A DNA stretch of 64,000 nucleotides from positions 32,001 to 96,000 of the IMG/VR virus record IMGVR_UViG_3300022937_000008; one strand, given 5' to 3'. This document shows, in pieces, positions 9,481 through 48,367 of the stretch. Source of the stretch: a virus. The notes beneath the pieces were generated by a model. The model was given only the letters and a program-made list of their open reading frames with translations. It was not told the DNA's origin and did not search any database. Position 1 is the first letter of the stretch. Each line of letters begins with the position of its first letter. A program made the translations under genes and the position numbers.

Positions 9481-9493
9481 AGTAATGTATTTA

Positions 9494-12906: not shown

Positions 12907-12914
12907 ATGTATAT

Positions 12915-15324: not shown

Positions 15325-15340
15325 ACTATTATTTAGCCAT

Positions 15341-21600: not shown

Positions 21601-21644
21601 ATAACTATTTATGCCTTAAGCTAGAAACGGTAAATAAGTATACT

Positions 21645-29778: not shown

Positions 29779-29864
29779 TCTGTATTTGCACCATATTTGT
29801 TACATAGTATTTATCTAATGCCATATCTTTCACTATCACGCTTACAGCGCCTATAAATATGCAT

Positions 29865-30443
29865 ATGAAACTCTTAAAAGACATTGGAATATTCGAGAGC
29901 GCAGTAACTGACGAAACCTGTGATAAATTGATTGAATATTATGATCAACTAACAGATTTAGGTATGTCACATACTAGAATTAGCACTAACGATTCTCCCG
30001 GGCACCTAAAAAAGGACTCTGCTGCATTTTTATTCGAACCTCCAGCACTTAATCTTTCCACAGAAAACCCTGCGGTTAGGGACAGTGTCCAGCAAATTAT
30101 TTATTGTTGGGAACAATATATAGATCATTACAGTGTATTATCATCTGTCGATCCACACAGAATTTACTATATGAAACTGCAAAAAACCCTACCAGGAGAA
30201 GGTTATCATGTATGGCATTACGAATCTGATAACCGAGAACGTTCAGGTAGAGTTGCTGCGTGGGGGTTATATCTTAACACTGTCGATGAGGGAGGAGAAA
30301 CCGAATGGCTTTATCAGTCTGTAAGGGTTCCTGCTACAAAAGGTACATTAGCAATTTGGCCAGCCGGTTATACTCATACACATAGAGGTAATCCACCTCT
30401 AAGTGGTGAAAAGTATTTGTTAACAGGTTGGATCGAATACTAA
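29865..30443 (+). CDS. Fe(II)/2OG oxygenase (prolyl-hydroxylase-like)
   Basis: WHYE...YLN...GGET...HRG...KY; start placed 5 nt after TATAAATA. Confidence 0.9.
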   Translation: MKLLKDIGIFESAVTDETCDKLIEYYDQLTDLGMSHTRISTNDSPGHLKKDSAAFLFEPPALNLSTENPAVRDSVQQIIYCWEQYIDHYSVLSSVDPHRIYYMKLQKTLPGEGYHVWHYESDNRERSGRVAAWGLYLNTVDEGGETEWLYQSVRVPATKGTLAIWPAGYTHTHRGNPPLSGEKYLLTGWIEY

Positions 30444-31069
30444 TGAACAAAATTAAACTTTTTCCTATAGAATTATTCGAATTTAAAAAAGAATTTGATT
30501 TTGATCAAATTATAGTAGACTGCGAAAAATATGCTGATTTGATTAAACATTCTGATGTTATTTCATCAATGAGAAATCTACACGATAAGCCTGAATTGAA
30601 AGAATTATTTGATTGGTTTAGACAGTGTTTAGATGAAATTAGATTGAAGCAAAAATATGACTGCGATAGTTTTGAAATAACAAGTAGTTGGTTTAACAGA
30701 TCATTACCTCAATCTCAAATGTCATTGAATTTGCATAGACATAGTATGAGTTTCTTTAGTGCAGTTTTTTATCTTACTGAAGGATCTCCTACAGTGTTTG
30801 AAGATCCGGTAATACATCGTACACAAGCACAACTTGAAGTTTTAAGAGAACTAGATAAAGATTCAAGCCCGCATCAAAGTATAGAAGCAGAACCAGGAAA
30901 GTTAATTATTTTTCCTAGTTGGCTTTTTCACTTTAGTGCTCCACACATAGGCGATAAAGATCGTTACGTTATTAGTTTTAATACTATGCCGCAGGGGCTT
31001 GTAAATTATAAATTAGCAACAGATAGCGTTGCCTCTATTAAAATATTGAATAAGGATAAAGGATGGTAA
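30443..31069 (+). CDS. Fe(II)/2OG oxygenase (HxH type)
   Basis: SWFN, HRH, SAVFY, FPSWLFH and RYVISFN. Confidence 0.85.
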   Translation: MNKIKLFPIELFEFKKEFDFDQIIVDCEKYADLIKHSDVISSMRNLHDKPELKELFDWFRQCLDEIRLKQKYDCDSFEITSSWFNRSLPQSQMSLNLHRHSMSFFSAVFYLTEGSPTVFEDPVIHRTQAQLEVLRELDKDSSPHQSIEAEPGKLIIFPSWLFHFSAPHIGDKDRYVISFNTMPQGLVNYKLATDSVASIKILNKDKGW

Positions 31070-32547
31070 AAGACCTAATTGTGTTAGGCGGCGGCAATGC
31101 TGGTCTTATGACAGCATTATACCTTAAAGAAAGTATTCCTAATCTTAACCTAACTGTAATTAAATCATCCAAGATTGGAACTATCGGTGTTGGCGAAGGA
31201 TCTACTGAACATTGGAAAATGTTTGCTTCTGCAACTAGAATTTCAATCGTAGATATGATAAGAGAGTGCGGTGCTACATTTAAGATAGGAATTAAGTTTG
31301 AAAATTGGCATGGTGATGGAACTAGTTACTATCATAGTTTGCCTGAAGCTCTAGTAGACACAGATAGTTATACAGGTATTCCGTATGCTATGCTTAAACT
31401 TATTGCAGATGGTACAGGCACAGAAAATCTGCACTGGCAATTGCCTATGGACGGATATATTAGAGAACCGTTAGATCAATACTATCAGTTTCATTTTGAC
31501 AGCGAAAAATTAAACACGTATCTTCTAAAAAAGTGTGATGAAAGAGATATTAAAGTTGTTGATGCTGAGATCAATAATTGTGTATTAGATAACGAAGGGT
31601 TTATTTCCTCTATAGTCGATGACAATGGGCTATCATATTCAGCAGATTTCTTTATAGACAGCAGTGGATTTAAAAGAGTACTTGCATCAAGACTTGGAGC
31701 AGAATGGGTTGATTGGTCAGAGTACTTACCTACAAACAGTGCGTTGGCTTTTCAAACACCATACGAAGAAAATATTCCTCCATATACACTATCTCGTTCT
31801 ATGAATGCTGGATGGATGTGGAGAGCTCCTGTACAGGATAGATTCGGTAACGGATATGTTTATGATGATAGATTTATTTCAGAAGAAAATGCATTAAAAG
31901 AAGTACAACAATACTTTGATTTTCCTTTAAACATAGGACGTAGAATCAAATACACTTCAGGAAAAGTAAACAAAGCATGGATTAAAAATTGTGTTTGTAT
32001 TGGATTAAGCAGTAACTTTGTTGAACCGTTAGAAGCAAGTAGCATATCAACTACTATACAACAGAGTAGACTACTAGCAAGTTCTCTTTGGAATTGGAAT
32101 AGATCAGATCAAGGAACAATTAACAAATATAATGAAATTGTTGATGACATGATGTTTAATATTTTAGACTTTATACAATTACATTATTATACTCAAAGAC
32201 AAGACACTAAGTTTTGGAAATGGTGTAAGAATGAAATGAAGATTACAGATTTTAATAAAGAGAATTTATCAAACTTTAAAAATAATTTTATTAGTCAAAC
32301 ATTATTACCAGAAGACGGAACGTTCGGAACCTATAGAATTTATGATTGTTTAAATTGGATTCAAGTAATGCACGGGTTGCGTATGTTTAATATAGAAAAT
32401 ATCAAGAAGATATATAATAGTCATACCCATTTAAAAAATATAGAATTAGAATTTTTGCAATTGCCAAGTCAACCAGATGAAACATGGATTACTTGTCGTG
32501 ATGCTGTAAATTTAGTCAAGAACAGTGTAACGGAAATTAAGTTATGA
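31063..32547 (+). CDS. Flavin-dependent halogenase (tryptophan halogenase family)
   Basis: GGGNAG, GVGEGS, ATFK with the catalytic-position Lys, WMWRAP and FVEPLEAS. Confidence 0.9.
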   Translation: MVKDLIVLGGGNAGLMTALYLKESIPNLNLTVIKSSKIGTIGVGEGSTEHWKMFASATRISIVDMIRECGATFKIGIKFENWHGDGTSYYHSLPEALVDTDSYTGIPYAMLKLIADGTGTENLHWQLPMDGYIREPLDQYYQFHFDSEKLNTYLLKKCDERDIKVVDAEINNCVLDNEGFISSIVDDNGLSYSADFFIDSSGFKRVLASRLGAEWVDWSEYLPTNSALAFQTPYEENIPPYTLSRSMNAGWMWRAPVQDRFGNGYVYDDRFISEENALKEVQQYFDFPLNIGRRIKYTSGKVNKAWIKNCVCIGLSSNFVEPLEASSISTTIQQSRLLASSLWNWNRSDQGTINKYNEIVDDMMFNILDFIQLHYYTQRQDTKFWKWCKNEMKITDFNKENLSNFKNNFISQTLLPEDGTFGTYRIYDCLNWIQVMHGLRMFNIENIKKIYNSHTHLKNIELEFLQLPSQPDETWITCRDAVNLVKNSVTEIKL

Positions 32548-34052
32548 TTAGATCATTATGTGTACTAGGTGGAGGAACTGCTGGATTAATTTCTGCATTA
32601 ATGATGCGTAAAGCATATCCTACTTTAAAAATTACAATATTAGAATCGTCTAAGATAGGTATTATTGGTGTAGGTGAAGGCAGTACAGAACACTGGAAAC
32701 CTTTTATGGAATATATCGATGTTGATGTTCCTACAATTGTAAGAGAGTGCGGAAGTACATTTAAAATAGGTATTAAATTTACAAACTGGAACGGCGACGG
32801 AAAATCTTATTGGCATAGTTTAACAGAACAGTATAACACTTTACATCAAGATAACGATGCCCCATTAAGTTGGTTTAGATACACAGGCGAGAATTGGGAT
32901 CCTGAAGAAACTGCTTGGGATTTATCAAGAAATAGCAAACATCCTGAGCCTTTCCATGAAATTATTTCTCAATATCATTTTGATACATTTAAATTAAACA
33001 AATTTTTTCATAAGTTATGTGCAGAAAGAAACATAGAAGTTATTGACACAGATATATCTGATGTAATCGTTGATAAAGATGGCTATGCTGATTACTTAAT
33101 AGATGAACACGGTAAACAATATAAAGCAGACTTTTACATTGATAGTAGCGGCTTCAGAAGAATTATAAGCAGTAAATTAGGTGCTAAATGGGTTGATAAA
33201 CAAAAACAATTACCAATGAATAGTGCTATTGCATTTCCAACAGGTTACACTGAAAACATTCCTTCCTATACTGAAGCAACAGCATTAAGTAGTGGATGGG
33301 TATGGAGAATTCCAACACAAGAACGATATGGAAATGGTTATGTTTTTTGTGACAACTTTATCAATGAAACACAAGCATACGATGAAGTTTCAAAGCATTA
33401 TAAAGAAAATTTAAAAATTACTCAAGAATTAGAAATAGGTAGAAAAGTAAAATTTAGTGCAGGATATTTAGATAAATTCTGGATTAAAAACTGTTTAACA
33501 GTTGGGCTATCAGGTATGTTTGTTGAACCATTAGAAGCAAGTAGTATAGGTTCTACAATACAAGAAATTAGATTAGCTATTCCTAGTTTCCATTACTGGA
33601 CTCGAGGAGAAACAATAACAGAAAATGTTTTTAATGATAGAATGATTAGAATAGCTGAAAATATTGTAGACTTTATTCAATTACACTATATTACTAAACG
33701 CAATGATACTGAATTCTGGAAATGGGTCAACAAAGAAATTGTTTATACAGATTTTATTAGAGAAAATTTAGAATACTTTAAAAAGAATGGTGTTAATTCA
33801 CAAATGTTCGGAATAGAACCATTGTATATGTTTTCTTATCTAAATTGGAGTCAAGTAATGCACGGTCTATCATTATTTGATTATGATGCTCGCAAGAAGT
33901 ATTGGGAAGAATTTTGGAGTAAAGAACATTCAGAAAATTTGGATAATTTATTTAAACACGGCAATGCAGTAGATATGAGTACTGTTCGAACACATAGAGA
34001 AGCATTAAATATTTTAAAAGAAAGATATTTGGAAGTACGTTATGAATTATAA
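32544..34052 (+). CDS. Flavin-dependent halogenase (tryptophan halogenase family)
   Basis: GGGTAG, GVGEGS, STFK, WVWRIP and FVEPLEAS. Confidence 0.9.
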   Translation: MIRSLCVLGGGTAGLISALMMRKAYPTLKITILESSKIGIIGVGEGSTEHWKPFMEYIDVDVPTIVRECGSTFKIGIKFTNWNGDGKSYWHSLTEQYNTLHQDNDAPLSWFRYTGENWDPEETAWDLSRNSKHPEPFHEIISQYHFDTFKLNKFFHKLCAERNIEVIDTDISDVIVDKDGYADYLIDEHGKQYKADFYIDSSGFRRIISSKLGAKWVDKQKQLPMNSAIAFPTGYTENIPSYTEATALSSGWVWRIPTQERYGNGYVFCDNFINETQAYDEVSKHYKENLKITQELEIGRKVKFSAGYLDKFWIKNCLTVGLSGMFVEPLEASSIGSTIQEIRLAIPSFHYWTRGETITENVFNDRMIRIAENIVDFIQLHYITKRNDTEFWKWVNKEIVYTDFIRENLEYFKKNGVNSQMFGIEPLYMFSYLNWSQVMHGLSLFDYDARKKYWEEFWSKEHSENLDNLFKHGNAVDMSTVRTHREALNILKERYLEVRYEL

Positions 34053-35580
34053 TGCAGTGATTTTAGGTGGCGGTTCCGCTGGCTGGTTAACAGCACTATG
34101 GGTTAAGAAATTTTGGCCTAATCTCAAAATTGCTATCGTTGAAAATCCTAAGAAACCTCCTATTATTGCAGGAGAAAGTGGAACGACTACGTTTGTAGAT
34201 CTATTAAGAAAGATTGACATAGACAAAGATGATTTTGTTACAAAGGTGTTTGCTACACCTAAGTTAGGTGGAAAATTTACAGACTGGAACGGTGTAGGGA
34301 CAGAGTTCATACATTGTTTACAAACAGATTATGCACCTTGGTTAGATGGATGGAGCGATTATTACGATACTCCGGAGTCTCAGCCTTTACTGTTTGGTAA
34401 TATGCTAAACATCATGCAACGAGAAAGAGAAAAAGATACATATCTAAAAACATTAATAGCAAATAATGTTCCTTTGTCAGATGCATTCTATGCAAATCAA
34501 TTTATAAAAAATAATAAAGTTCCTTTCGGTTCTAGTACACACAACCTGCCTGTTATTCCTATGTGGCATTTTGAAAGTAGATCAGCTGCTGCTTATTTTA
34601 AAGAAATAGGACTATCAAGAGGAATAGAACTTATCGAAGGAGAGTTTCAAAGTGCAAAATTAAAAACTGACGGAAACTGTGAATCAATCTTACTAGATGA
34701 AAATAGAGAAATAACAGCAGATTGGTTTTTTGATTGTAGTGGTTTTGCTAGATTACTTTTAGAAAAAACCATGAAGGAACCTATTTTAGATTATACAGAT
34801 TACTTTCCAGCTAGAGCAGTAGTTGCCTGGTGGGACGATCCTTGTTACTGTGTTACAACAAATGCTATTGCAATGAAGTATGGCTGGAGTTGGAACATTA
34901 ATCTAAGACATAGAAGCGGAAACGGTTATCTATATGATCCAGATCATTTAACATTAGATCAAGCAATACAAGAAGCGGAAAAACGATTTGATAAAAAAAT
35001 AGAACCTATAGCAAACTTTAGTTTTCAACCTGGAATGATGAGAAACACTTGGAAAAACAACGTCATAGCTATTGGTTTGAGCAACGGATTTTTAGAGCCG
35101 TTAGAAGCAAACGGGGTTGCTGTTATTATAGAAAGCCTATATGCACTACAAGATCATTGGCACCCTGAAAGAAAAGGATATGTATCTAACAGATTTAATG
35201 ACAGAGTTTGGTCAGTGAGTGAAGATATTAAAGATTTCTTAGCGTTACATTATAGAGGAAAACGCAAAGACACTGAGTTTTGGCAAAGTCATCAAAACGA
35301 TGAATTTAGAATTCCGGAAACTTTAAGATTAAAATTAGAGGACTGGAAACAATGGTATTTGCACGGAGGTGCAGAACCACTTTATAACGGGTATAGTCCA
35401 ACAGCATGGCTGATGGTATTACAAGCACTACAGGTATATGATCATAGCATACTTTCAGCTAGATACGAAAAACTGCTAACAATATCCTCAAATGTGCTAA
35501 ATAATAATATACAACGTTACAAACAGCTTGTTGCTCCATTTTTAACCATTGAGCAATGGGTGGATAATTATGCTAAATAG
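34042..35580 (+). CDS. Flavin-dependent halogenase, divergent
   Basis: GGGSAG, AGES, ATPK, WSWNIN (variant of WxWxIP) and FLEPLEANG. Confidence 0.85.
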   Translation: MNYNAVILGGGSAGWLTALWVKKFWPNLKIAIVENPKKPPIIAGESGTTTFVDLLRKIDIDKDDFVTKVFATPKLGGKFTDWNGVGTEFIHCLQTDYAPWLDGWSDYYDTPESQPLLFGNMLNIMQREREKDTYLKTLIANNVPLSDAFYANQFIKNNKVPFGSSTHNLPVIPMWHFESRSAAAYFKEIGLSRGIELIEGEFQSAKLKTDGNCESILLDENREITADWFFDCSGFARLLLEKTMKEPILDYTDYFPARAVVAWWDDPCYCVTTNAIAMKYGWSWNINLRHRSGNGYLYDPDHLTLDQAIQEAEKRFDKKIEPIANFSFQPGMMRNTWKNNVIAIGLSNGFLEPLEANGVAVIIESLYALQDHWHPERKGYVSNRFNDRVWSVSEDIKDFLALHYRGKRKDTEFWQSHQNDEFRIPETLRLKLEDWKQWYLHGGAEPLYNGYSPTAWLMVLQALQVYDHSILSARYEKLLTISSNVLNNNIQRYKQLVAPFLTIEQWVDNYAK

Positions 35581-35600
35581 TATGCAAGGAGTTAATTGTA

Positions 35601-35759
35601 ATGAAAACTTATAAGATTATTTTAAGAGTGGCACACGGAGTACTCGAAGTTAGAGAAGACACTTGTCAGGCAAGAAACGCTGAAGAAGCACAAAAAATCT
35701 TCGAAGAAAGACACGGTGTAGAACTAATTGTTGCTGGTCCTTTGCCAGTTAGCAATTAA
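35601..35759 (+). CDS. Small protein (52 aa) at the junction of the convergent operons
   Basis: Hand translation MKTYKIILRVAHGVLEVREDTCQARNAEEAQKIFEERHGVELIVAGPLPVSN; AAGGAG RBS and TAAATA upstream. Confidence 0.7.
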   Translation: MKTYKIILRVAHGVLEVREDTCQARNAEEAQKIFEERHGVELIVAGPLPVSN

Positions 35760-36382
35760 CGATCAAACCCCATTTCTTTTCTAGCAGATTCAAGCTCGTC
35801 TTTAATAGCTTGATTAACAAATTCCGAAGGTAAACCTAAACAAGGCCTAGTATCCCATTTTAAATGTGCATACGGGCCTTTTTCATCTACATACTGTAAA
35901 AATGCCTGTATTACTTTTTGTCCAGTATACGGCTCTCTCCAATGTTCGTGTCTACGACCACTGTAGATAACTATGTCTCCAACATCTAAGATTATTTCGT
36001 GAATGTTGCCTTCTTCATTTTTAATGTATAACGGCCAGTCTTGATCTTCTTTTGTAATAGAAACACTTACAGATATTTCAGAACTGCTACGATCAAAGTG
36101 CTTTCCTAGTTCAGATCCGTTGTAATATATGCGAGCATAACTGTAAACAGGTACTAATTTCTTTCCTACTTTTTCACTTACTAATGGTGTAAGTTTTAGC
36201 ATTAATGCTTCAAACATTAAAGGAGCATATCTTGCAAATGTATTTTCACACATATCTGATAAGTTTGCACCAGGATATAATACTTGACATACATCGTTTT
36301 GCATTTCATATTCTAATGCCATAAACTCGCAAAGCTCTTTGCTTACGGCATTTTTAACAATAATATAATCTTCTTTCATCAT
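35756..36382 (-). CDS. Fe(II)/2OG oxygenase
   Basis: YARIY, KHFDR, GDIVIY, EHWR and FLQY. Confidence 0.8.
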   Translation of the reverse strand: MMKEDYIIVKNAVSKELCEFMALEYEMQNDVCQVLYPGANLSDMCENTFARYAPLMFEALMLKLTPLVSEKVGKKLVPVYSYARIYYNGSELGKHFDRSSSEISVSVSITKEDQDWPLYIKNEEGNIHEIILDVGDIVIYSGRRHEHWREPYTGQKVIQAFLQYVDEKGPYAHLKWDTRPCLGLPSEFVNQAIKDELESARKEMGFDR

Positions 36383-36930
36383 ACTAACGGAATCATACTC
36401 ATGTTACCAAAAGGTCTTTCTACATAGTTTCTAATAAACTCATTATTAGGAATAGTATGTATATCAAAACCTAGTGTAGTTCTATAACCTTCGTAAGGTT
36501 CTAGTACTTCTACTTTGTGTTTTACAAATCCAGGACCAAAATATATTTGTCCGGGTTTATTTTCAATAGTCCAATTTTCAAACACTGTGTTTGTTTTTTT
36601 AGGATCTATTGATATATAGCCATGATAATCAAACTCATGTCCGTGCCAATCTAATACTTCATCGTGTTTATGATAGTTGATCCAAGATTGCAACCATAAA
36701 GGTCGATCATCGCCAAGTTCTTTTCTTACAAACTCTCTTAATTCAACATATAAAGAATACCATGCTGTACTAGGAGCAGTTAGTGTAAACACATTATACT
36801 TGTTATAGGACCATGTACTATCTTTGTCAGGAAAGACAGTTTCAAATACCTTATGTGCTTCATTAAGGCTGTGAACTATTTCGTCGTAGTTTTCTAAAAT
36901 AGTTTTAGATGTTATGAGTTTGTATTCCAT
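36379..36930 (-). CDS. Putative Fe(II)/2OG oxygenase (HxH type)
   Basis: SWIN, WHGH, KHKV and RTTLGFD. Confidence 0.65.
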   Translation of the reverse strand: MEYKLITSKTILENYDEIVHSLNEAHKVFETVFPDKDSTWSYNKYNVFTLTAPSTAWYSLYVELREFVRKELGDDRPLWLQSWINYHKHDEVLDWHGHEFDYHGYISIDPKKTNTVFENWTIENKPGQIYFGPGFVKHKVEVLEPYEGYRTTLGFDIHTIPNNEFIRNYVERPFGNMSMIPLV

Positions 36931-37532
36931 ATGTTTCTCAAATTCATGTTAATCACCATTCTAAATTTAGAATTTCTTGCCCATGAAGAACTATGATAAT
37001 ACTTTCCAGGAAATATTAGTATTCTTCCTTTTTTAGGTGTTACTCTTTGCTTAACTGTAAAATTATTTTCTTTTATTCTAATAATATCATCTTGACCGCT
37101 ACTGTATGTGTCGTTGGTTTCGTTAAAAATAACAGTGTCGCCATCGCTATCATTGACATAATATATTGCATTCCAGTGTTCAAAAAAACTATCTATATGC
37201 GGCATATGCCAGTCTAATTTACTTACTTTGTTAGGTAATGTTAAGTTTGCTCGCATTCTAATTAACTGATTAAAAGAAACATTGGCTTGACTTGTGATAC
37301 TTAACACTAAAGGATACATTACATTGAAATGCATACTTTTAGGTTCATTATGTTCATAGAAAAAATGATTAAACCCTGCATGATTGTCTTCTTGTGTTTG
37401 AAAATCTTCATCGCCTGATACCATTGATTGATTGAATACCCAACCAAAATCCCAACCAGTCATTAAATTTAAAATGTGGTCTTGATAGTCTTTAGGTATA
37501 ATATTATCAATTACAATTATATCATTAGTCAT
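36912..37532 (-). CDS. Fe(II)/2OG oxygenase
   Basis: PHID, YYVNDSDGDT, YHSS and RMVIN. Confidence 0.85.
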   Translation of the reverse strand: MTNDIIVIDNIIPKDYQDHILNLMTGWDFGWVFNQSMVSGDEDFQTQEDNHAGFNHFFYEHNEPKSMHFNVMYPLVLSITSQANVSFNQLIRMRANLTLPNKVSKLDWHMPHIDSFFEHWNAIYYVNDSDGDTVIFNETNDTYSSGQDDIIRIKENNFTVKQRVTPKKGRILIFPGKYYHSSSWARNSKFRMVINMNLRNIWNTNS

Positions 37533-38046
37533 GTACTGCTACTCCATAGAAGTTTATAAACAAACTACTATCTTCTTTAGTTTCTCCGTAAAATTTTTCA
37601 ATCTTATGAGGTTTTTCAGGTTCAAATATAACACATCTATTAAACACATTTTCTACTTTAATAGAAGGAACAATAGCATTTGATACTTTACTATAGAATG
37701 TTATTCCTGAATTTTCAGGAGGATTAGGATTTAAAAATATTGTTCCTGCTATATTGTACATTCCATTTAATTCAACTATTTCTGATGTATGTTTACTATC
37801 AACTAAATTAAAATCACAATGCACAAAATTAAATCTATATTTGTTAGGCACATGAACTATTAGTTTTGCAAGAATTGTATCAAACAAATTAAAGTTTATT
37901 TCGTCAAGAGTTTTTGAACGCAATCCGTAATACGCATCATTATCTTGTTCTAAATAATCTAATTTTAAAGCACTGTGTCTAACAAGTGTAGGTGCTTCAA
38001 AAAAATCATCTATAACTTTTACAGGTTGTTTAACGTCTTTGATCAT
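37525..38046 (-). CDS. Degenerate Fe(II)/2OG-oxygenase paralog
   Basis: Resembles the neighbouring 38043 ORF (IDDFFEAP, GLRS, FNRCVIF) but lacks HxD. Confidence 0.6.
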   Translation of the reverse strand: MIKDVKQPVKVIDDFFEAPTLVRHSALKLDYLEQDNDAYYGLRSKTLDEINFNLFDTILAKLIVHVPNKYRFNFVHCDFNLVDSKHTSEIVELNGMYNIAGTIFLNPNPPENSGITFYSKVSNAIVPSIKVENVFNRCVIFEPEKPHKIEKFYGETKEDSSLFINFYGVAVHD

Positions 38047-38750
38047 ATTGCTTTAACAAAAAACACTTGTGTTAATCGGTTAGTGTCTTTACTGTTCCCA
38101 AAAAATTCTTCTGCACTGTGCCATGCTCGTGTGTCAAACATTATACATCTATTGTAGACACTCTCCATAGTTACTGTTTTTTTAAAAAGTTTTGTTTGTT
38201 CTTCTCTGTATTTTTGATATGGTTTTCTTTCTTCTTCAGTATCAGATAATACATCTTTCATAAACTTGTCTGCATATTCATCTAAATTTAGATTATCTTT
38301 ATCTTCATACACAACAGTTCCACTTCCTAGTGGAGCTTCTTTGTTAAGATAAATTACTCCTGCAATATTAAGTTTTGGATCATCGTCGTGTACCCAACCT
38401 CTTCCATATGTTTCATCTACCATGTGGAATGCTGTTTGAAATTCAGAGAAAGATCTATAACCATAATCTCTAATCCAGAAAAGTAATTTTTTTCCGAACA
38501 TTTCAAACAACGGTAAATTATTTTCATGAAATAACTTAGTTCTAAGACCCGGCCAACTACCTCGCTTTCCTTTAAAAAATTCTTGATCTAGTGCAAATTC
38601 TCTCCATAGATCTGGCTCGTCGTAGAAGTTATCTATAATAGTTGTTGGAAAGTAAGGATACAGATTTCTATCTTTAATTTGATTATTAGAGATATACTGA
38701 CTAGAAGCCTTATCGCTTTCTATCAAACTATTAATATAATCGTTATCCAT
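38043..38750 (-). CDS. Fe(II)/2OG oxygenase (DUF6445-like)
   Basis: IDNFY, PGLR, VHDD, IYLN, WHSA and RLTQVFF. Confidence 0.8.
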   Translation of the reverse strand: MDNDYINSLIESDKASSQYISNNQIKDRNLYPYFPTTIIDNFYDEPDLWREFALDQEFFKGKRGSWPGLRTKLFHENNLPLFEMFGKKLLFWIRDYGYRSFSEFQTAFHMVDETYGRGWVHDDDPKLNIAGVIYLNKEAPLGSGTVVYEDKDNLNLDEYADKFMKDVLSDTEEERKPYQKYREEQTKLFKKTVTMESVYNRCIMFDTRAWHSAEEFFGNSKDTNRLTQVFFVKAI

Positions 38751-39348
38751 TCTTTTGACCTGCTGTAAAATTCATAGTAAGTACAATTCTTTGGTTATGC
38801 ATCTTAGGACAAGTACTTGCATGAAAGTGCCAACCATTGAATACAAGAACTTTTCCTTGAAGAGGCTCGCTTTTAAATTTACGATGATACTTTTGTCCTG
38901 TTAATAAAGGTTGATCTTTCTCGTGAAAAATTACAGTATCACCATCGCTTGAATTAACATAATAACACGCTGTAAAATGTTCCTGTTCATAATCTCTATG
39001 CGGAGTATTATATTCATAAGGTAAATGAGGGAAACTATACTTTGTGTTTAACAAAAATCCTAATCTCATTCTAAGTAATGTATGTAATTCTAATCCTGCT
39101 TTTTCACAAGTTGCATTTAACAATGGCATAAAAAAATCTAAGTGAGGATTATGTTGATTATTAGGATGATATATTAAATGAGCAAAACTAGGTGTTGAAT
39201 GTCTTGGATCTTGATCTAAACGATCTTCATATGTAGTATCGTTCATAAAATGCCAGTCAAACTCAATATTAGTAACTTTATTTAAAATTTCCATAGAGTA
39301 ATTGTAATCAATTACATCATATATTTCAATTGGTTCAAAATCAGTCAT
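38743..39348 (-). CDS. Fe(II)/2OG oxygenase
   Basis: PHRD, YYVNSSDGDT and FHAS; paralog of the 36912 ORF. Confidence 0.85.
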   Translation of the reverse strand: MTDFEPIEIYDVIDYNYSMEILNKVTNIEFDWHFMNDTTYEDRLDQDPRHSTPSFAHLIYHPNNQHNPHLDFFMPLLNATCEKAGLELHTLLRMRLGFLLNTKYSFPHLPYEYNTPHRDYEQEHFTACYYVNSSDGDTVIFHEKDQPLLTGQKYHRKFKSEPLQGKVLVFNGWHFHASTCPKMHNQRIVLTMNFTAGQKNG

Positions 39349-40060
39349 GTTGTATCCTATAAAAATTTCTATCAATACTTCCTGTTGCATCTTCAGTTGG
39401 AAGTTTCTGCCAACAAGGAATACTCATAGACAATCGCTTTCCTTTAGGATATGCACAATGATACATTCTTGAAGGAATATATAAAACGTCTCCTGGTTTA
39501 AGTGTAACGTCTATTGCTAGTTCTAAATCATCTTCTTTAAGTTTATTGTTTAGCAAACCAGTTCTATGCATATAAGTTATTCTATTATTAAAAATTTTCC
39601 AGTGTGTTTCGCCTTCAACTTGAATAATAAAATTAGCAGGATAGTCTTCATGTATATTAAAACTTTTTGCATCTTGTAAACCAAAGTAAACATGAATAGC
39701 TGAATTTACACTGTACATACTTTCAAACATTGCAAGAAGTTCCATAGTTTTTTTACTATAGAATGCATAATCTAAATTAATTAAACCGCAACCTTCGTGT
39801 AGTTTGTCAAATAAAAATTGTTTATCTTGAACAGGCCTATTCCATATCCACGATTTATTGTATGCTGGTACTTCTATTTTAGTACCTGTAGGATCAATAA
39901 CTTCAAAATTATACTGTGCTGAATTATTCATAGTCCATTCAACATCGTCCCACGTACAATATATACTAGGATCAGAAATAAGATTTTCCCAATAATGCGG
40001 AGCATCATTGATCATTAAATCTGTTTCTTTAAGAATTCTTTGGGAAATATCTGTCATCAT
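39341..40060 (-). CDS. JmjC / cupin-4 (ribosomal-oxygenase-like) protein hydroxylase
   Basis: SFNIHED, FIIQVEGETHW, LKPGDVLYIP, YH and RLSMS. Confidence 0.85.
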   Translation of the reverse strand: MMTDISQRILKETDLMINDAPHYWENLISDPSIYCTWDDVEWTMNNSAQYNFEVIDPTGTKIEVPAYNKSWIWNRPVQDKQFLFDKLHEGCGLINLDYAFYSKKTMELLAMFESMYSVNSAIHVYFGLQDAKSFNIHEDYPANFIIQVEGETHWKIFNNRITYMHRTGLLNNKLKEDDLELAIDVTLKPGDVLYIPSRMYHCAYPKGKRLSMSIPCWQKLPTEDATGSIDRNFYRIQHD

Positions 40061-40655
40061 CTGTCCTAAAATATTTAACATTCCAAGAAATAGAAATTCT
40101 ATCTTCGTCGGTACTATTTCTTTCTACACCGTGCGGTAAGTTTCCAGGGAATATTAAAATTTTTCCTGTTTCTGCTTCATATCTTATTGCACTTGCACTT
40201 ATTGCTGTGTGTTGCTCAATCGGTGCTCTCGAAGCAACTATAAAATCTGCATTGTAATCTTTATAAAAAATTATTCCACCTTGGTCTGGAGTTGCTTTAA
40301 CATAAAAGGCTCCACTAATAAAAGAATTATCGTGGATATGAACACTATTTGTATCGCCTTTTTTATTAATATTGGCCCAAAGATTTTCAATTACAATAAA
40401 TCCTGCATCTTGATTATAACCATAATCAATTATGCATCGTTGCGCTTGTTCTAATATTAAATCTTCTAAAGGTTTCATTTCAGGATAAGTTCCTGGACGG
40501 AAATCCATTGACTGCCAGCCGCCTTGATTACTTAAATATCTACCTTTTGTATCTTGTTCGTATAATTTATAAACAAGTTTTTCAATACTATCAGTATCAA
40601 TATTAGTTGTTGTCCACCATACTGGAGTAGGAAAGAAATGATCAAAGTGCCACAT
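40029..40655 (-). CDS. Fe(II)/2OG oxygenase (HxH type)
   Basis: FPTP, GGWQS, WANIN, HIH, SGAFYV, PHGV and RISISWN. Confidence 0.88.
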   Translation of the reverse strand: MWHFDHFFPTPVWWTTTNIDTDSIEKLVYKLYEQDTKGRYLSNQGGWQSMDFRPGTYPEMKPLEDLILEQAQRCIIDYGYNQDAGFIVIENLWANINKKGDTNSVHIHDNSFISGAFYVKATPDQGGIIFYKDYNADFIVASRAPIEQHTAISASAIRYEAETGKILIFPGNLPHGVERNSTDEDRISISWNVKYFRTDDDRYFPKNS

Positions 40656-41455
40656 TATCTAATAACCTCCCCAAACGTTTTAGGTGGAGATAAATGTGAA
40701 AATGCAAATGCATGACTCCATCTAAAGTCTACGTTTTCAGAAATCACTGCACTGTGACAAATATTAGCATGATACATAGTCATTTTACCTTTAATACTTG
40801 GTGCTTGTCCTTTATATTCAAACCCCCATTCTGCTAATTCTTCGTCTTTCATATTAAACCAGCTCGGTGCTCTAAAAGGTTTTTCAGCCATTGCTCTCCA
40901 TTTTTCAAACATAGGATGTGTTTGATCTGTTTGAAAATCATATACACTATCCTTTAATACTCCATTATACTTATAAAGTTTTGTACTGCTATCTTTAATA
41001 TCGTGATCTGTAAACCAAAGGTTAGCAACTAATCCTTCAGGGTAATCAACGTGAGGTATTCTCCAACATGAAATAGGTCGTGCTCTATCTTTGTAATAAA
41101 CATTCCCCCATTCATGTATCTGTGGTTCAAATATATCAGGATTAGAATGCTGAATATAGAAATCTCTAATTAACACACATATATCTTGATAAACCCAATT
41201 AGGAAGATGTACAGTGTCAAAAGGATTAGGATCAAAATTATCAGGATGATTATTATCTTTTACAATAGGAAAACATTTAATTAACTCTTGAAAAGTTTCA
41301 AAACCTTCTTCTGTTTTAAAAGGATGATCAGCAATCCAAAACCCTATTCCGTCACCTAGGTCTGTGTATTCAGCATTTAATTCGTAAGGTTTTTTAAATT
41401 TAAAAACTTTATGAAAGTTATTTGCGTCAGGATTACAAACTTTAAAATCTATCAT
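40655..41455 (-). CDS. Putative Fe(II)/2OG oxygenase
   Basis: PHVD, NLW, CHSA and distal Arg. Confidence 0.65.
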   Translation of the reverse strand: MIDFKVCNPDANNFHKVFKFKKPYELNAEYTDLGDGIGFWIADHPFKTEEGFETFQELIKCFPIVKDNNHPDNFDPNPFDTVHLPNWVYQDICVLIRDFYIQHSNPDIFEPQIHEWGNVYYKDRARPISCWRIPHVDYPEGLVANLWFTDHDIKDSSTKLYKYNGVLKDSVYDFQTDQTHPMFEKWRAMAEKPFRAPSWFNMKDEELAEWGFEYKGQAPSIKGKMTMYHANICHSAVISENVDFRWSHAFAFSHLSPPKTFGEVIR

Positions 41456-42033
41456 TTTATATTAAACGTCATTACTATTCTTTCTTCGTTGGTATTATTA
41501 GGCTGTACTCTATGCTTTAACCAACCAGGAAATATTAATACATCATTAGTTTCAACAGGCAATTCGGTATAGTTCCTTTCTCCGATAATAGGAAAAGAGG
41601 TTTTATGATATTCCAGAGGATCTCTAAATTCGATATTACCGGAGTTAGGAGGACATTTAACATAACAACTTGCTACCCAAGTAGCAAAGTTATGTTGATG
41701 TTCTAGTGTATAACCTGTTTTAAAGTGTCTATTAAACCAAGAACCTTGCACCATAGACTGTCTTTCATAGAAGTTATGGTCGTCTTTTATTTGTGTTAAC
41801 CTATCCCCGAGCCAGGCTTGAAAGTCGGAGAGTTCCATCCAAGTGTGAGGTTGCAACATTTCATCATTAGAAACAGTAGATATTGCATCTCCTGCTTCTA
41901 AACTAGAATTCTGATCAACGTGTGATATTGCTTCTTCTATTCTTGGACGTAGTGATTCGTAATTAAACTCGTAACTATACTTGTAAATGAATGGCAAGAA
42001 TAAATGAACACCGCCATTATTCACTGCTTCCAT
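41452..42033 (-). CDS. Fe(II)/2OG oxygenase (HxH type)
   Basis: SWFN, HQH, FRDP, FPGWLKHRV and RIVMTFN. Confidence 0.88.
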   Translation of the reverse strand: MEAVNNGGVHLFLPFIYKYSYEFNYESLRPRIEEAISHVDQNSSLEAGDAISTVSNDEMLQPHTWMELSDFQAWLGDRLTQIKDDHNFYERQSMVQGSWFNRHFKTGYTLEHQHNFATWVASCYVKCPPNSGNIEFRDPLEYHKTSFPIIGERNYTELPVETNDVLIFPGWLKHRVQPNNTNEERIVMTFNIK

Positions 42034-42277
42034 CGTTTTGACCCTGTTCCTCAAGCAAATCGACAGCTAATTGTATACCCATCATTGTACCTTCCATCTT
42101 TAGTACATCTTGAGACAGTTCTTGTCTTTTGCTAAAGTCAATTGATGTAATGCCGTATGGATTCAATTTAACGTTTGCAAAATCTTCTTCTAGTTTTGCG
42201 AGTTCTGCTTCTGCTGCTGTTTTTTGAATTTTTACATTCTCAATAGCACCTAACAGTTTTCCTTTTACTTTTTCCAT
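42017..42277 (-). CDS. Hypothetical coiled-coil protein
   Basis: ORF with GAGGA RBS inside the operon. Confidence 0.65.
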   Translation of the reverse strand: MEKVKGKLLGAIENVKIQKTAAEAELAKLEEDFANVKLNPYGITSIDFSKRQELSQDVLKMEGTMMGIQLAVDLLEEQGQNDGSSE

Positions 42278-42282
42278 TGTTA

Positions 42283-43065
42283 TTATCCTCTGTGTTTATA
42301 CTTAGTTAGAATTTTAGAAGCTCTTTGCAGTCTTGAAGACAGTTGGTCCGTTTCTAAAAATATAGAATTGGCTGCAAAGTTATATGCTCTTTCTTTTTGG
42401 TAATCTAACTCATCTGCATTTTCAATACTAACATCAAACGAATTATATTGCAAGTCTTTTCTTTTGATTGGTATGTATTGGCAAAGTGGAGTTCCTGCTC
42501 GAATTAACGTTTCTCCATTTAGTTGTTTCCAAAATAATTGCACGTTAACAACGTGTGAATATCTTGGATCTAATATTCCAATAGCTGCTTGGAATCTGCT
42601 TTCATTGTTATATGTTACAGGTAATTGCATAAAAACAATGTCATCACTACATTCAACTCTCCACGGAGTTTCAACTTTAATTACTGTTCTTAGTGTATCT
42701 TCTGCACTGTCTAAAATAGGATCAGTTTGTGACGAATCGTGTGAAGCAATATAAGATTCAGTTCCAGGCATTCCTTTGTCAAATTGAATTGGTTCTCTCC
42801 AACTAAAACTTGCTCCGTCACCAGTAGTTTGAATTACAAAATCTGCTGGAGCCGTAATAATCCATCCTGTTGAAGCAATTTTTAAAATGCCCGGGCATTG
42901 CTTAACTGGTCTTACATTTGGCGGAGTTTCTGATTTGGTAAAAGGTCTCTTTAATTCTACACTTCTAATAGGAGGATATAAATCCATAACACCTGGAAAT
43001 GTAGAATAAAATCTTATATAAGGCTTCTTATCAAAATTAAACCAATTTTTAATCTTGTTAAGCAT
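42283..43065 (-). CDS. Hypothetical protein (DUF6065 / dUTPase-fold-like)
   Basis: KQCPG...GWII.AP, PW, GILD and IRAGTPLCQYIP pattern. Confidence 0.55.
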   Translation of the reverse strand: MLNKIKNWFNFDKKPYIRFYSTFPGVMDLYPPIRSVELKRPFTKSETPPNVRPVKQCPGILKIASTGWIITAPADFVIQTTGDGASFSWREPIQFDKGMPGTESYIASHDSSQTDPILDSAEDTLRTVIKVETPWRVECSDDIVFMQLPVTYNNESRFQAAIGILDPRYSHVVNVQLFWKQLNGETLIRAGTPLCQYIPIKRKDLQYNSFDVSIENADELDYQKERAYNFAANSIFLETDQLSSRLQRASKILTKYKHRG

Positions 43066-43066
43066 A

Positions 43067-44689
43067 CTACTCACTATCGTATTCGTCTTTTCCGCCATAT
43101 ATATTTTCTTTTAGGTACTCATAATGTGTTGGTAACTGAGCAATATAATCTGTTATGAATTGTTTATATTCTTCATGTCTGCGTCTAGTATAACCAATTT
43201 GTTCTTCGCGAAGTTCTTGGTCCATTCTATCGCCTGTATTATAAACTAGTTCTGGAGTTCCCATTGGTCTAATTCCCATACCTGCGGCAATAAACATATT
43301 ACCGGTATAATCTAATACATAAGAACTATTACCCATAATTGCATCCATCATATGAGAATACTGTGTGTGTCGAAGTAAATACTCTCCTTGCATCTCAGGA
43401 TCATAATCATTTATTTCTGTACACCAATTCCAGTAAGGTGTATCTTGACGCATACTCCATGCATAGTGTTGTGACACAAAATCTCTAAACTTAGTAACAT
43501 CGTAATCACAAGCCATATTAAAGCCTTCTCTTTCCATACGTGTTACATAACCTTCTCTTCTGTTTAATGCTTCAACTAGTTTAACAATGTTTTCGTGTGT
43601 TGTCAATAACCCAGTAGACTCAAGAGGTTCTACAAAGCCATAACTTAATCCAACACCAACAACATTTCCTTTCCATGCTCTATGACGTTTACCGTGTTTA
43701 ATTTTAATCATAAAAGGTTCAGCATTTTCAGCAACTTCAGGACTATGATATTTTGCAAGGTAATCTATAAATTCTTTTTTAGCATCTTCTTCTGTTGTGA
43801 ATCTAGTAGAGAAAACATAACCAGTTCCTATTCTATTCCACAATGGTATTGTCCAAACCCAGCCATTATCTAATGCATGACAATCAGTAACATTATGCAT
43901 TTGTGTTTTTCTGTCCGTATAAGGAATTCTAACTGCCCATGCTCTATCGTTTGCTAGATGTTTGTTGAAAGGAATAAAGTGAGATCCCATCCAATTTTCT
44001 AACATTATAGATCTAAATCCAGTACAGTCAATCCATAGATCTGATTCTAATATAGTTCCATCTTCGCAAAACACTTGTTGAATATATGTATGTGTGTTAT
44101 CTTTTTTGTGAGAATGAATATCTGCTTTAATGTGTTTAACGCCATTTGGCAAAGCAATATTATCTCTTAGATATTGACCAAACAAACTAGCATCCATATG
44201 ATATGCTGTGTCGTACTTAAAATCAAAATGTCTAATAATTTTATCTTCATTTCTAGTTTGTTTATTATACTTTGCTAGTAGTGTATTACCAGTAGCAAAG
44301 AATTCAGCGAAAGATTCAGGACCAAATTCTTTAGGATAAAGTGCAGAAAGATAAATCCAATCACTGATTCCATTAGGTTTATCTGTAAAGTCTAAGCCGT
44401 TACTAAAAGGATATTCAAAAAATGTACCGTCTTTTTCTCTAAAGTTTGTAAATCTAATAGAATTTTTGTATGTAGCATTACAAGCTGCCATCCAATCTTC
44501 ATCTTTTAAATCTAATAAGCGTAAAAATTTATTAATGTGTCCAAGTGTGCTTTCTCCGACACCTACTGGCCCTACGAACGGAGATTCTACCAGTGTTATA
44601 TCTAGATGTGGGCAAAGTTTTGAAAGTGCTGCCGCTGTCATCCAACCACTAGATCCGCCGCCTACAATGGTAACTGTTTTATATTTCAT
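43067..44689 (-). CDS. Flavin-dependent halogenase (tryptophan halogenase family)
   Basis: GGGSSG, GVGEST, ATYK, WVWTIP and FVEPLESTG. Confidence 0.92.
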   Translation of the reverse strand: MKYKTVTIVGGGSSGWMTAAALSKLCPHLDITLVESPFVGPVGVGESTLGHINKFLRLLDLKDEDWMAACNATYKNSIRFTNFREKDGTFFEYPFSNGLDFTDKPNGISDWIYLSALYPKEFGPESFAEFFATGNTLLAKYNKQTRNEDKIIRHFDFKYDTAYHMDASLFGQYLRDNIALPNGVKHIKADIHSHKKDNTHTYIQQVFCEDGTILESDLWIDCTGFRSIMLENWMGSHFIPFNKHLANDRAWAVRIPYTDRKTQMHNVTDCHALDNGWVWTIPLWNRIGTGYVFSTRFTTEEDAKKEFIDYLAKYHSPEVAENAEPFMIKIKHGKRHRAWKGNVVGVGLSYGFVEPLESTGLLTTHENIVKLVEALNRREGYVTRMEREGFNMACDYDVTKFRDFVSQHYAWSMRQDTPYWNWCTEINDYDPEMQGEYLLRHTQYSHMMDAIMGNSSYVLDYTGNMFIAAGMGIRPMGTPELVYNTGDRMDQELREEQIGYTRRRHEEYKQFITDYIAQLPTHYEYLKENIYGGKDEYDSE

Positions 44690-44745
44690 ATTATATCCTT
44701 TATTAAGTACGTATATTATTTAGCTGAAGTTTTATGGTGTGATCA

Positions 44746-44779
44746 GTAAAAAAGGCACTTAAAGAAAGTGCCTTTTTAC
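44746..44779 (-). terminator. Rho-independent terminator ending the fibre operon
   Basis: AAAAAGGCACTT-aaaga-AAGTGCCTTTTT inverted repeat. Confidence 0.85.
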
Positions 44780-44798: not shown

Positions 44799-45299
44799 TT
44801 ACTGTTGGTTGCCCCACCAACCTCTGTAGCGTCTCCATGCTGGAATTTCCGGAGTACCTGGCATATTTGCTTTATCTACACTAGGTTCTTCGACAGCAGC
44901 TTTCGCTTGTAATTCTTCAAGTGTCATTGGTGGTTCTGGTGGTAGTGGTTTATCAATTAGAGCTTTTACATTTGTAATGTGTGTAGCCCAAGGACCATTA
45001 ATCGAAATGGTTCCTGTTGCTTTTAGCTCGTCATAAATCATACCTAATTGAGCGCCAACTTCACCGTATGCAACTTTTCTTGCTACTTCGTTAGCATTTG
45101 GTGAATAAGGCATATCTCTTTCAACCCAAATCATCTCTTGTCTAGACGGAGACCATTCTAATGTCCAATCTAGTGTGATTTCATCAGGTGCATCAACCCA
45201 TTGCATATTCGCATCTGGGCCGTTGTAAATCTCATACTCTTCGCCGGGGTTTCTAATTTCGGATACCCAGCCTTGATAACCGATAAGTGCTTTTTTCAT
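44799..45299 (-). CDS. Putative tail-fibre assembly/chaperone-like protein
   Basis: R..AY.....QL..IY...W...I..VK pattern; directly downstream of the fibre paralogs. Confidence 0.5.
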   Translation of the reverse strand: MKKALIGYQGWVSEIRNPGEEYEIYNGPDANMQWVDAPDEITLDWTLEWSPSRQEMIWVERDMPYSPNANEVARKVAYGEVGAQLGMIYDELKATGTISINGPWATHITNVKALIDKPLPPEPPMTLEELQAKAAVEEPSVDKANMPGTPEIPAWRRYRGWWGNQQ

Positions 45300-45303
45300 A
45301 ATG

Positions 45304-47914: not shown

Positions 47915-48367
47915 TTAAATGTTCTCTATTAACCAACCTTCTGTAGCAGTTGAATACACTAATTTAAATGCTGCGCCTTCTGTAGTAACTGTCATTGCAT
48001 CAGAGGTTCTCATAATAGGATTACCATTGTTTGCAATTGTCAATGTATTTGTATCAAATGTTCCTTTTAAGTCAAAAATCTGAATAATTTCACCAGTTGA
48101 AGGAGAAGCAGGTAATGTTAATGTAATTGGACCACCACTGGTATCTACCCAATAAGCAGTTCCAGATACTGCTGCTGTACTGGAGGTAATAGCTACTCTA
48201 TTCAATCCGCCGACTGGTAACCAAGCAGTTCCGTTATAGAACTCTAAATGATTACTATCGGTGTTATAATATTGAACACCAGCGTTAACTGTAGCGGGCC
48301 TTTCTGCTGTCGAGCCCATCAACATTCTTGGCTGTATTTCAATACCGTTATTAACTACTCTTCCCAT
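47915..48367 (-). CDS. Tail fibre / baseplate connector-like protein
   Basis: GSTAERP...YYNT...EFYNG..W and YWVDTSGGPITLTLPASP..G modules seen in T4-like fibre and baseplate proteins. Confidence 0.65.
   Translation of the reverse strand: MGRVVNNGIEIQPRMLMGSTAERPATVNAGVQYYNTDSNHLEFYNGTAWLPVGGLNRVAITSSTAAVSGTAYWVDTSGGPITLTLPASPSTGEIIQIFDLKGTFDTNTLTIANNGNPIMRTSDAMTVTTEGAAFKLVYSTATEGWLIENI

Follow-up and report, generated by a model that had tools for sequence, protein, structure and literature searches.

A conserved halogenase and oxygenase cassette beside the tail-fibre tip genes of marine T4-like phages and its possible role in tip-protein tailoring

The stretch of DNA analysed here (the window, 64 kb) comprises bases 32001-96000 of the 114-kb IMG/VR virus contig IMGVR_UViG_3300022937_000008. 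It contains an island of four flavin-dependent halogenases, 12 oxygenases of the Fe/2-oxoglutarate (2OG) type, a dUTPase-fold protein and small conserved proteins. The island is linked and co-inherited with the genes for a Gly/His-rich adhesin and a small protein, g40, and a terminator and a late motif are conserved ahead of its first minus-strand halogenase. Because of this linkage and these conserved signals, it is plausible that the enzymes form a protein-tailoring cassette of the fibre tip. The reading is unproven and is put forward tentatively.

The coordinates of the open reading frames (ORFs) bear out the two convergent, coupled gene runs that an earlier reading of the letters alone (the sequence-only reading) had described. 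The plus-strand run has five genes (29859-35580) with mutual overlaps of 4-16 nt. The minus-strand run has 13 genes from 44689 down to 35756, which overlap or are separated by gaps of a few nt, and the two runs converge at 35580/35756. The four halogenases of that reading all have Pfam Trp_halogenase matches and the catalytic motifs, and its estimate of about twelve oxygenases becomes a total of 12, nine with Pfam support and three by orthology and motifs. The PHROGs and Pfam matches also place fibre genes on both sides of the island, as it had stated. Its claim that no non-ribosomal peptide or polyketide synthase scaffold and no flavin reductase are present extends to the whole 114-kb contig (about 32% of the genome according to CheckV), in which searches for Flavin_Reduct, AMP-binding and ketoacyl-synthase domains were negative.

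Linkage of the enzyme genes with the fibre tip

Linkage with fibre genes in relatives had been set beforehand as a test of the fibre-tip reading. A locus search with a single gp43-like protein, the dUTPase-fold protein of the island, found nothing; a 36-sequence alignment of this family used as the query gave 80 IMG/VR loci (47-72% identity), whose ORFs were labelled against the window proteins. In 80 of 80 loci, as far as the flank is included, the genes are arranged as fibre, a 106-amino-acid ORF (s106), a gp9/10-like protein, two or three adhesins, g40, one or two halogenases, the gp43-like protein, the small protein g44 and the oxygenases. The order of the oxygenases behind g44 is also fixed across loci. 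In the clade of the window, a small ORF of convergent orientation comes after the oxygenases, as do another two or three halogenases. The same order is found in the six isolates Syn9, P-TIM40, S-CREM1, S-WAM1, S-SZBM1 and P-RSM6, five of which are assigned, to five genera. The core kept in these isolates consists of two or three adhesins, g40, a VirX1-type halogenase, Oxy_5-type oxygenases and a JmjC protein. The predicted linkage holds without exception in the 80 loci and the six isolates.

The phyletic pattern is stronger evidence than adjacency. The g40 family occurs in 20 of 50,697 phage records, and a search with the S-WAM1 copy of the adhesin returned an identical set of 20. Each of these records is also a VirX1-type halogenase match, and the halogenase lies directly behind g40 in the six inspected isolates. 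The upstream main fibre (Syn9 gp34) is found in 459 records, 296 of them at full length. Since the adhesin and g40 share the same 20 records against 459 with the main fibre, it seems that the adhesin, g40 and the enzymes are gained and lost as one block. The cassette is absent from Syn19, S-RIM2 and ACG-2014a despite a fibre that is 80-85% identical to that of Syn9, and Syn19 has another gene set at the cassette site. The tightest partners of the enzymes are the adhesins and g40, more than the giant fibres.

Enzyme and fibre genes are also intermixed. An Oxy_5-type oxygenase gene lies within the fibre/adhesin run or between g40 and the halogenase in P-RSM6 (L094, 6623-7366) and in the loci L062, L065-L067, L075 and L084. 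A distant 6-kb contig of a metagenome-assembled genome (L100, CAZTFG010000127.1, 679-5910) encodes a Phage Tail Collar protein and then three tandem gp43-like paralogues, which face two oxygenases, one prolyl-hydroxylase-like and the other gp54-like, and a carbamoyltransferase. There is no halogenase within these 6 kb. The contig is an independent case of a tail protein joined to gp43-like proteins and dioxygenases.

Late-type motifs and the terminator

The plus-strand run is headed by the late-promoter-like motif TATAAATA (29852-29859, plus strand, motif scan), which is found only twice in the window, where shuffled sequences would give 8.2 copies. Each of the two immediately precedes the start of a gene, in one case the first plus-strand oxygenase (oA) and in the other g40, and the copy ahead of oA is in the same place in the relative L095. 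Since the ATG at 29859 overlaps the motif, the real start of oA is probably the ATG at 29865. On the minus strand, a GC-rich intrinsic terminator hairpin with a T-run (about 44748-44777) separates g40 from the first halogenase, HAL4. It is followed by CTAAATA (44717-44723, minus strand), 28 nt ahead of the HAL4 ATG, and then by an AAGGA Shine-Dalgarno sequence and the ATG. The sequence-only reading had placed the late motif at the head of each run; a motif is present at both 29852 and 44717, but the minus-strand one is the CTAAATA variant and not TATAAATA.

The view that the island is a unit headed by late-type motifs gains from about 40 diverged relatives, in which the hairpin and the motif are kept before the halogenase. 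The spacer between g40 and the halogenase varies in sequence among these relatives, while the hairpin, the T-run and the Shine-Dalgarno sequence are kept and [T/A/C]TAAATA is found at -29 to -49 before the halogenase. In Syn9-like loci this spacer is 16-40 nt long and is without the motif.

The other copies of these motifs in the window are also found ahead of structural genes. ATAAATA has 12 copies, 10 of which lie at most 60 nt upstream of same-strand starts, and the genes preceded by it that have a PHROGs or Pfam family match are virion structural or fibre-module genes. None of the 12 copies precedes UvsX or gp32. The copy at 29808-29814 (minus strand) lies 30 nt ahead of the start of a 512-amino-acid fibre-like gene (28240-29778). 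CTAAATA stands ahead of the genes for the tail sheath, the baseplate connector and HAL4, of a tube-like gene and of a 52-amino-acid ORF, where it lies at 35573-35579, 22 nt ahead of the start. The sequence NATAAATA is the published late promoter of cyanomyoviruses (PMC2984593). Since the motifs are placed before late-type genes and NATAAATA has been published as a late promoter, late transcription of the cassette would be a well-founded inference. As in T4-type late units, the motif appears to lie just upstream of late genes and to be enriched before them. The cassette genes are absent from the main text of the P-HM2 and field-transcript papers.

Only 5-8 nt lie between the end of several late-type motifs and the start codon (9488-9494, 12912-12918, 21606-21612, 45305-45312, 15330-15336 and 29852-29859). 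If the transcription start site were about 6 nt downstream of the motif, as in T4, such late messages would be leaderless or nearly so. For the motif at 29852, this spacing also speaks for the ATG at 29865, rather than 29859, as the real start.

Enzymes, candidate substrates and neighbouring genes

The plus-strand run encodes the halogenases HAL1 (31063-32547; PF04820 E 7e-101), HAL2 (32544-34052; E 1e-91) and HAL3 (34042-35580; E 4e-84), and HAL4 (43067-44689; E 3e-103) opens the minus-strand run. The PF04820 matches are full-length, with scores of 283-347 bits against a curated cut-off of 21. None of the four departs from the GxGxxG motif, the catalytic Lys column, GW.W or F.EPLE. The full WxWxIP motif is present in HAL2 and HAL4 only; HAL1 and HAL3 deviate at the last two positions. 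HAL4 aligns with VirX1, the iodinase of cyanophage Syn10 (6QGM), over its full length (phmmer, E 2.4e-191, residues 2-533) and is followed by the gp43-like gene. In Syn9 and Syn10, gp43-like hits likewise abut or overlap the halogenase. The full-length alignment and the matching gene neighbours make HAL4 a member of the VirX1 orthologue group. HAL1-3 appear to be a subfamily distinct from VirX1; HAL2, the one searched against solved structures, has Trp 5/6-halogenases as its nearest matches and VirX1 as a distant one (E 5e-37).

The iodinase VirX1 forms a trimer, and its active site is unusually large and open. It halogenates small heteroaromatics in vitro, and its natural substrate is unknown (PMC8407142). 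Halogenases of other subfamilies are found in other places. The halogenase of S-SSM7 is in a sugar/carbamoyltransferase island together with 2OG genes, that of HTVC008M is between terminase genes and that of S-B64 is behind gp46/47, beside recombination genes. Since these subfamilies sit elsewhere in related phages, the fibre-tip link seems to be specific to the VirX1-type cassette. A complex prediction of HAL4 with the gp43-like protein, both entered as alignments, gave a score of 0.00; it was run without controls and is used neither for nor against an interaction.

The plus-strand oxygenases are oA (29859 or 29865 to 30443), a prolyl-hydroxylase-like 2OG-FeII_Oxy_3 protein (Pfam E 9.5e-09), and oB (30428-31069), an Oxy_5 protein (Pfam E 1.4e-14). 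The ten tandem minus-strand oxygenase genes (35756-42054) match Syn9 gp45-gp54 one-to-one in hidden Markov model (HMM) comparisons. Those with a Pfam match are the Oxy_5 genes at 41452-42054, 40029-40655 and 36912-37532, an Oxy_3 gene at 38743-39390, a DUF6445 gene at 38043-38750 with a short paralogue at 37525-38046, and a NO66/MINA53-like JmjC (JmjC_2) gene at 39341-40081. The gp46-like (40655-41455), gp47-like (36379-36930) and gp54-like (35756-36382) genes have no Pfam match. They are counted as oxygenases because they are the positional orthologues of Syn9 gp46, gp47 and gp54 and have conserved metal columns, HxD or HxH and the distal His being kept in 45-sequence alignments. The Syn9 proteins have been classed as dioxygenases by Iyer, Abhiman, de Souza and Aravind (2010, Nucleic Acids Research; PMC2938197). 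For the gp47-like gene, hhalign also gives 74-86% against the Oxy_5 genes. The gp46-like gene groups with 'Gp46 family' and DUF6445 clusters in an Atlas look-up, which is a lead only.

The HxD...H columns are conserved in the alignments of the JmjC gene and of the genes labelled oL, oI, oJ, uF and uN. The Oxy_5 genes oG, oE and uM have HxH...H in place of HxD...H, and oG keeps RxS. The short DUF6445 paralogue has no conserved triad in 16 sequences. Profile searches against the PDB gave two uncharacterised structural-genomics entries only for Oxy_5, and no match for the gp46-like, Oxy_3 (38743) and DUF6445 families. The oxygenase count varies from about 3 to 12 per cassette. Some oxygenases of this kind (Syn9 gp46, gp51-gp54 and others) have the RefSeq labels 'DNA endonuclease V', 'minor coat protein' and 'ferrochelatase' in L006, L008, L092, L094 and L101, which look like misannotations of DUF6445 or 2OG family proteins.

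The JmjC profile matches the protein hydroxylases NO66 (E 7e-11), MINA53 and YcfD in the PDB, in keeping with the point in the sequence-only reading that JmjC enzymes typically modify proteins. The match spans query residues 88-207 only, which is the JmjC core, and the protein has 246 amino acids against 373-489 residues in the solved chains. Ribosomal oxygenases of the ROX family combine this core with dimerisation and winged-helix domains. Since only the core is matched in a protein of this length, the phage JmjC is not filed as a ROX. Judged from its nearest relatives, it may work like a protein hydroxylase.

The three gp38-like adhesin paralogues (45304-46158, 46181-47038 and 47052-47903, all minus strand) match phrog_863 and Gly_rich_2 (PF21722). 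In 146 distinct relatives the adhesins average 23.6% Gly and 4.5% His and have conserved His-rich loops. The g40-like protein (44799-45312, minus strand; phrog_1787, Syn9 gp40 family) has 166 amino acids and its own copy of TATAAATA (45305-45312). With this motif ahead of the gene and the terminator downstream, the layout would give more g40 message than enzyme message. The protein is Trp-rich, and its globular part is followed by a Pro-rich tail with a P-[A/C]-W motif, which is kept in six of six inspected isolates and is invariant in an 18-sequence alignment of metagenomic forms. It is predicted to be well folded, with a predicted local distance difference test (pLDDT) value of 85.8. The best fold matches in BFVD are Syn9 Gp40 (E 5e-19) and then, weakly, 'tail fiber assembly' proteins (E 0.02-0.5), and the best in the PDB is the fibre of cyanophage Pam3 (prob 0.25). 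A role of g40 as a general cyanophage fibre chaperone was considered and rejected, as the protein is present in 20 of about 460 main-fibre records.

The gp43-like protein (42283-43098, minus strand; 271 amino acids) is predicted by AlphaFold2 with a pLDDT of 85.7, and Foldseek matches the model to dUTPases (prob 1.0, TMt 0.6-0.72). Cys68, Asp86 and Asp177 are invariant in the 36-sequence alignment, and the gene overlaps HAL4 by 32 nt. A homologue search returned 240 proteins. Weak haloviral homologues adjoin thymidylate synthase and DNA polymerase genes, and in bacterial genomes the family was found on two contigs of metagenome-assembled genomes only, one of which is clearly a copy of this phage cassette. 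In three of four long relatives, the oA-oB-halogenase run has a second paralogue ahead of it; the window has the 512-amino-acid fibre gene there. The gp43-like gene is missing from S-WAM1, S-SZBM1 and P-RSM6 although the cassette is kept.

The g44-like protein (42017-42277, minus strand) is a helical protein of 86 amino acids with a conserved NPYG motif, as judged by HMM and alignment. Five of the six isolates and nearly all of the 80 loci have an HMM match in the corresponding place, after the halogenase or the gp43-like gene; the match is weak in P-TIM40 and P-RSM6, and S-SZBM1 has none. The plus-strand run is closed by the unannotated 52-amino-acid ORF (35601-35759), which has 36 distinct forms in the same position in relatives, with Y/W at residue 4 and a VAGP motif kept. 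Pfam searches at E up to 10 gave nothing useful for g40, g44, the gp43-like protein, the gp47-like (36379) and gp46-like (40655) oxygenases or this ORF.

The adhesins are followed on their upstream side by the gp9/10-like protein (47915-48367; PHROGs, Pfam), s106 (48382-48702; same order in relatives) and two giant tail fibres with CBM5/12 repeats, of 2515 (48722-56269) and 1866 amino acids (56302-61902; both PHROGs, Pfam), all on the minus strand. On the other side of the island, also on the minus strand, are the 512-amino-acid tail-fibre-like protein (28240-29778; phrog_9729), a 690-amino-acid S8 subtilase-domain protein (26159-28231; phrog_9158, PF00082) and a baseplate-fibre connector (25258-26139; phrog_677). 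S-B64 has a 691-amino-acid 'peptidase' directly behind its halogenase (L091, 8633-10708), which may or may not be of the same family as the S8 protein.

The phage is T4-like, marine, large and uncultured, and the window covers its structural region, with large terminase, tail tube, sheath, neck proteins, UvsX and gp32. The relatives G001 (L096), G004 (L097) and G005 (L098) reach up to 278 kb at an estimated completeness of 75%; therefore, the genome size of the clade is probably near 370 kb. The tail sheath (16038-19385, minus strand) has 1115 amino acids against roughly 750 in cyanomyovirus sheaths, and its best full-length matches are the jumbo-phage sheaths of Phosso, PA5oct and Atu_ph07 at about 40% identity.

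Proposed function, alternatives and known systems

In the fibre-tip reading, the island would be the enzyme half of one conserved late-transcribed cassette, the other half of which is the distal tail-fibre tip. The enzymes would hydroxylate and halogenate side chains of phage-made proteins of the tip complex during virion assembly, with a host flavin reductase, 2OG, O2 and sea-water halide supplying the chemistry. In the adhesin loops, the candidate sites would be residues of His, Asn, Arg or Pro; in the tail of g40, the candidate would be the invariant Trp. g40 and the adhesins are concrete candidate substrates, without proof, because of the Trp-rich g40 tail, the His-rich adhesin loops, the relatives of the JmjC protein and the known peptide and protein halogenases. 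Some flavin halogenases are known to use peptides and proteins of ribosomal origin as substrates (for example PMC10286304). The more specific proposal, that the natural substrates of VirX1 and its oxygenase partners are their own fibre-tip proteins, with the Trp of the g40 P-[A/C]-W motif halogenated and the His-rich adhesin loops hydroxylated, is speculative and, in this detail, rather doubtful. The general reading is supported by the invariant gene order, the co-occurrence and block behaviour, the intercalated oxygenases, the late-type motifs, the enzyme families, the lack of a scaffold enzyme in the 114-kb contig and the L100 case.

Several observations weigh against tailoring of the fibre tip. 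No modified residue has been observed anywhere, and the late timing is deduced from the motifs alone. Trp makes up only 0.5% of the adhesins in the 146 distinct relatives. It is not obvious what the dUTPase-fold protein would do in protein modification; its weak haloviral relatives are found beside thymidylate synthase and DNA polymerase, and the other halogenase subfamilies of related phages lie in sugar islands, between terminase genes and beside recombination genes. The co-inheritance could also be the result of one ancient insertion at a permissive site, with the genes linked by descent. No flavin halogenase is known to act on folded structural proteins. VirX1 itself acts on small heteroaromatics in vitro (PMC8407142). 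In the virion-proteome table of Sullivan et al. (2010; Table S8), sections on S-SM1, S-PM2 and Syn9 list fibres and no enzyme, and the table is silent on modifications. The virion proteome of S-SCSM2R does hold a 2OG oxygenase, which may or may not belong to this cassette.

The enzymes may instead act on a small molecule, the halogenases and oxygenases decorating in turn a metabolite of amino-acid or host origin, with a halogenated secondary metabolite and a ligand of siderophore type as examples. What they make might be of use to the infected cell or attach to the His-rich fibre tip. This would agree with the in vitro conversion of many small aromatics by VirX1, with the S-SSM7 halogenase and 2OG genes in a sugar/carbamoyltransferase island, and with the analogy that Iyer et al. 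(2010) drew to cephamycin-type pathways and to bacterial neighbourhoods with halogenases, JmjC proteins and TonB receptors (PMC2938197). However, the cassette contains no scaffold-forming enzyme, ligase, methyltransferase or exporter, the contig has no adenylation or ketosynthase domain, and it would be uncommon for a single small molecule to be the target of twelve oxygenases from several families when no enzyme builds its backbone. With promoters of the late type, a metabolite would have little time to act, and this reading gives no reason to expect strict co-inheritance with one type of adhesin, except where the adhesin binds the product as its ligand. A small-molecule product is thus considered rather unlikely. 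Modification of host proteins is improbable. Here the JmjC and prolyl-hydroxylase-like enzymes would hydroxylate host ribosomal proteins, translation factors or envelope proteins and tune late protein synthesis, and the position beside the fibres would be accidental. The closest solved relatives of the JmjC protein are indeed the ribosomal oxygenases NO66, MINA53 and YcfD, and Oxy_3 is a prolyl-hydroxylase family; but the extra domains of these oxygenases appear to be missing from the phage protein, judged by its length and match span, and neither the halogenases nor the co-inheritance with the adhesin and g40 would be explained.

It is also quite improbable that the genes form no single system, with a hyperplastic site behind the fibres collecting accessory oxygenases and halogenases of separate or redundant roles, such as a drawdown of 2OG in nitrogen stress. 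The range in oxygenase number among cassettes would fit such a site. Sullivan et al. (2010) linked the 2OG oxygenases, which they found scattered in 14 of 16 cyanophages, to nitrogen stress with modulation of 2OG and to DNA repair. A loose collection would not account for the one-to-one orthologues in fixed order at 47-72% identity across the 80 loci, the operon-like gene overlaps or the metal-ligand columns conserved per family, and a 2OG sink needs neither ten distinct families nor halogenases. The dUTPase fold raises the further case of nucleotide or DNA modification, in which this protein would bind a pyrimidine nucleotide and make a 5-halogenated base with the halogenase while the oxygenases act like base hydroxylases. 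In favour of this case, the columns GILDP (motif-3-like) and APADF (motif-1-like) are invariant, weak haloviral homologues have thymidylate synthase and DNA polymerase for neighbours, and the gene overlaps that of the halogenase, with a second paralogue before the second halogenase run in three of four relatives. The late-type control and the position in the fibre module rather than among replication genes point the other way, as do the three isolates that keep the cassette without a gp43-like protein and the joining of three gp43-like genes to a Tail Collar protein in L100. In addition, Pfam gave no TET/JBP-like or AlkB match above threshold in the island proteins, and this case can hardly be the right one.

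Ever since the first genomes, it has been asked what marine cyanophages do with their many 2OG oxygenases and halogenases; the answers suggested in print are the synthesis of antibiotics or secondary metabolites, the repair of DNA and control of 2OG. The co-inheritance narrows the candidates to a handful of proteins in at least six isolates (Syn9, Syn10, P-TIM40, S-CREM1, S-WAM1 and S-SZBM1), and the value of the finding is that it names substrates that can be tested. If proteins are the target, a component of the virus particle would be halogenated enzymatically and VirX1 would have a native substrate; the more specific proposal on g40 and the adhesin loops, if true, would further provide the first halogenated virion-associated protein and a new means of tuning receptor binding with sea-water halides. 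If the proteins are not the target, the small-molecule reading would gain and the linkage would need another explanation.

Individual parts of the island resemble characterized systems. HAL4 shares with VirX1 (Syn10, PDB 6QGM) the full-length alignment, all catalytic motifs and the genomic neighbour; VirX1 is known from in vitro activity on non-natural small aromatics and HAL4, in this work, from its sequence. The phage JmjC has in common with NO66, MINA53 and YcfD, which are His/Arg protein hydroxylases, the catalytic core with the HxD...H triad, and differs from these longer enzymes in that only the core is matched. In loci for ribosomally synthesized and post-translationally modified peptides (RiPPs), the flavin halogenase gene adjoins the gene of a small protein with a conserved Trp near its C-terminus and a terminator lies between the two, as is the case for g40 and HAL4. 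A leader-guided RiPP halogenase is a brominase of a C-terminal Trp (PMC10286304), and g40, like a RiPP precursor, appears to be separately and probably strongly expressed. However, g40 is a folded protein of 135-221 amino acids rather than a short leader-core peptide, and Pfam scans of the cassette found no maturation protease and no transporter or exporter, so that the likeness is one of gene layout only. Iyer et al. (2010) also described bacterial operons of 2OG hydroxylases with tail-collar or collagen-like proteins. These share with the island, and with the gp43-like and Tail Collar genes of L100, that hydroxylases are co-encoded with fibre-type proposed substrates, but they carry sulfotransferases and lack halogenases.

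The closest system as a whole is the Syn9 gp41-gp54 neighbourhood, of which the island is an expanded variant; the island is not new. Iyer et al. (2010) reported ten tandem dioxygenases of at least five families in this neighbourhood, including the MINA/NO66-like gp49, together with two tryptophan halogenases and a dUTPase-fold protein that carries a conserved cysteine, and they proposed the synthesis of a halogenated secondary metabolite (PMC2938197). The VirX1-type halogenase, the dUTPase-fold protein with its Cys, the small protein and the ten dioxygenases including JmjC are shared in the same order, and the Gly-rich proteins gp38 and gp39 and gp40 precede the cassette in Syn9. The genomes are of different size, about 370 kb in the window clade and 177 kb in Syn9. 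There are three adhesins here and two in Syn9, and the halogenase here is preceded by a terminator and a late motif of its own in place of the short spacer of Syn9-like loci. In addition, the lineage of the window has an extra convergent run, which encodes three halogenases from another subfamily, two further oxygenases and a conserved small ORF.

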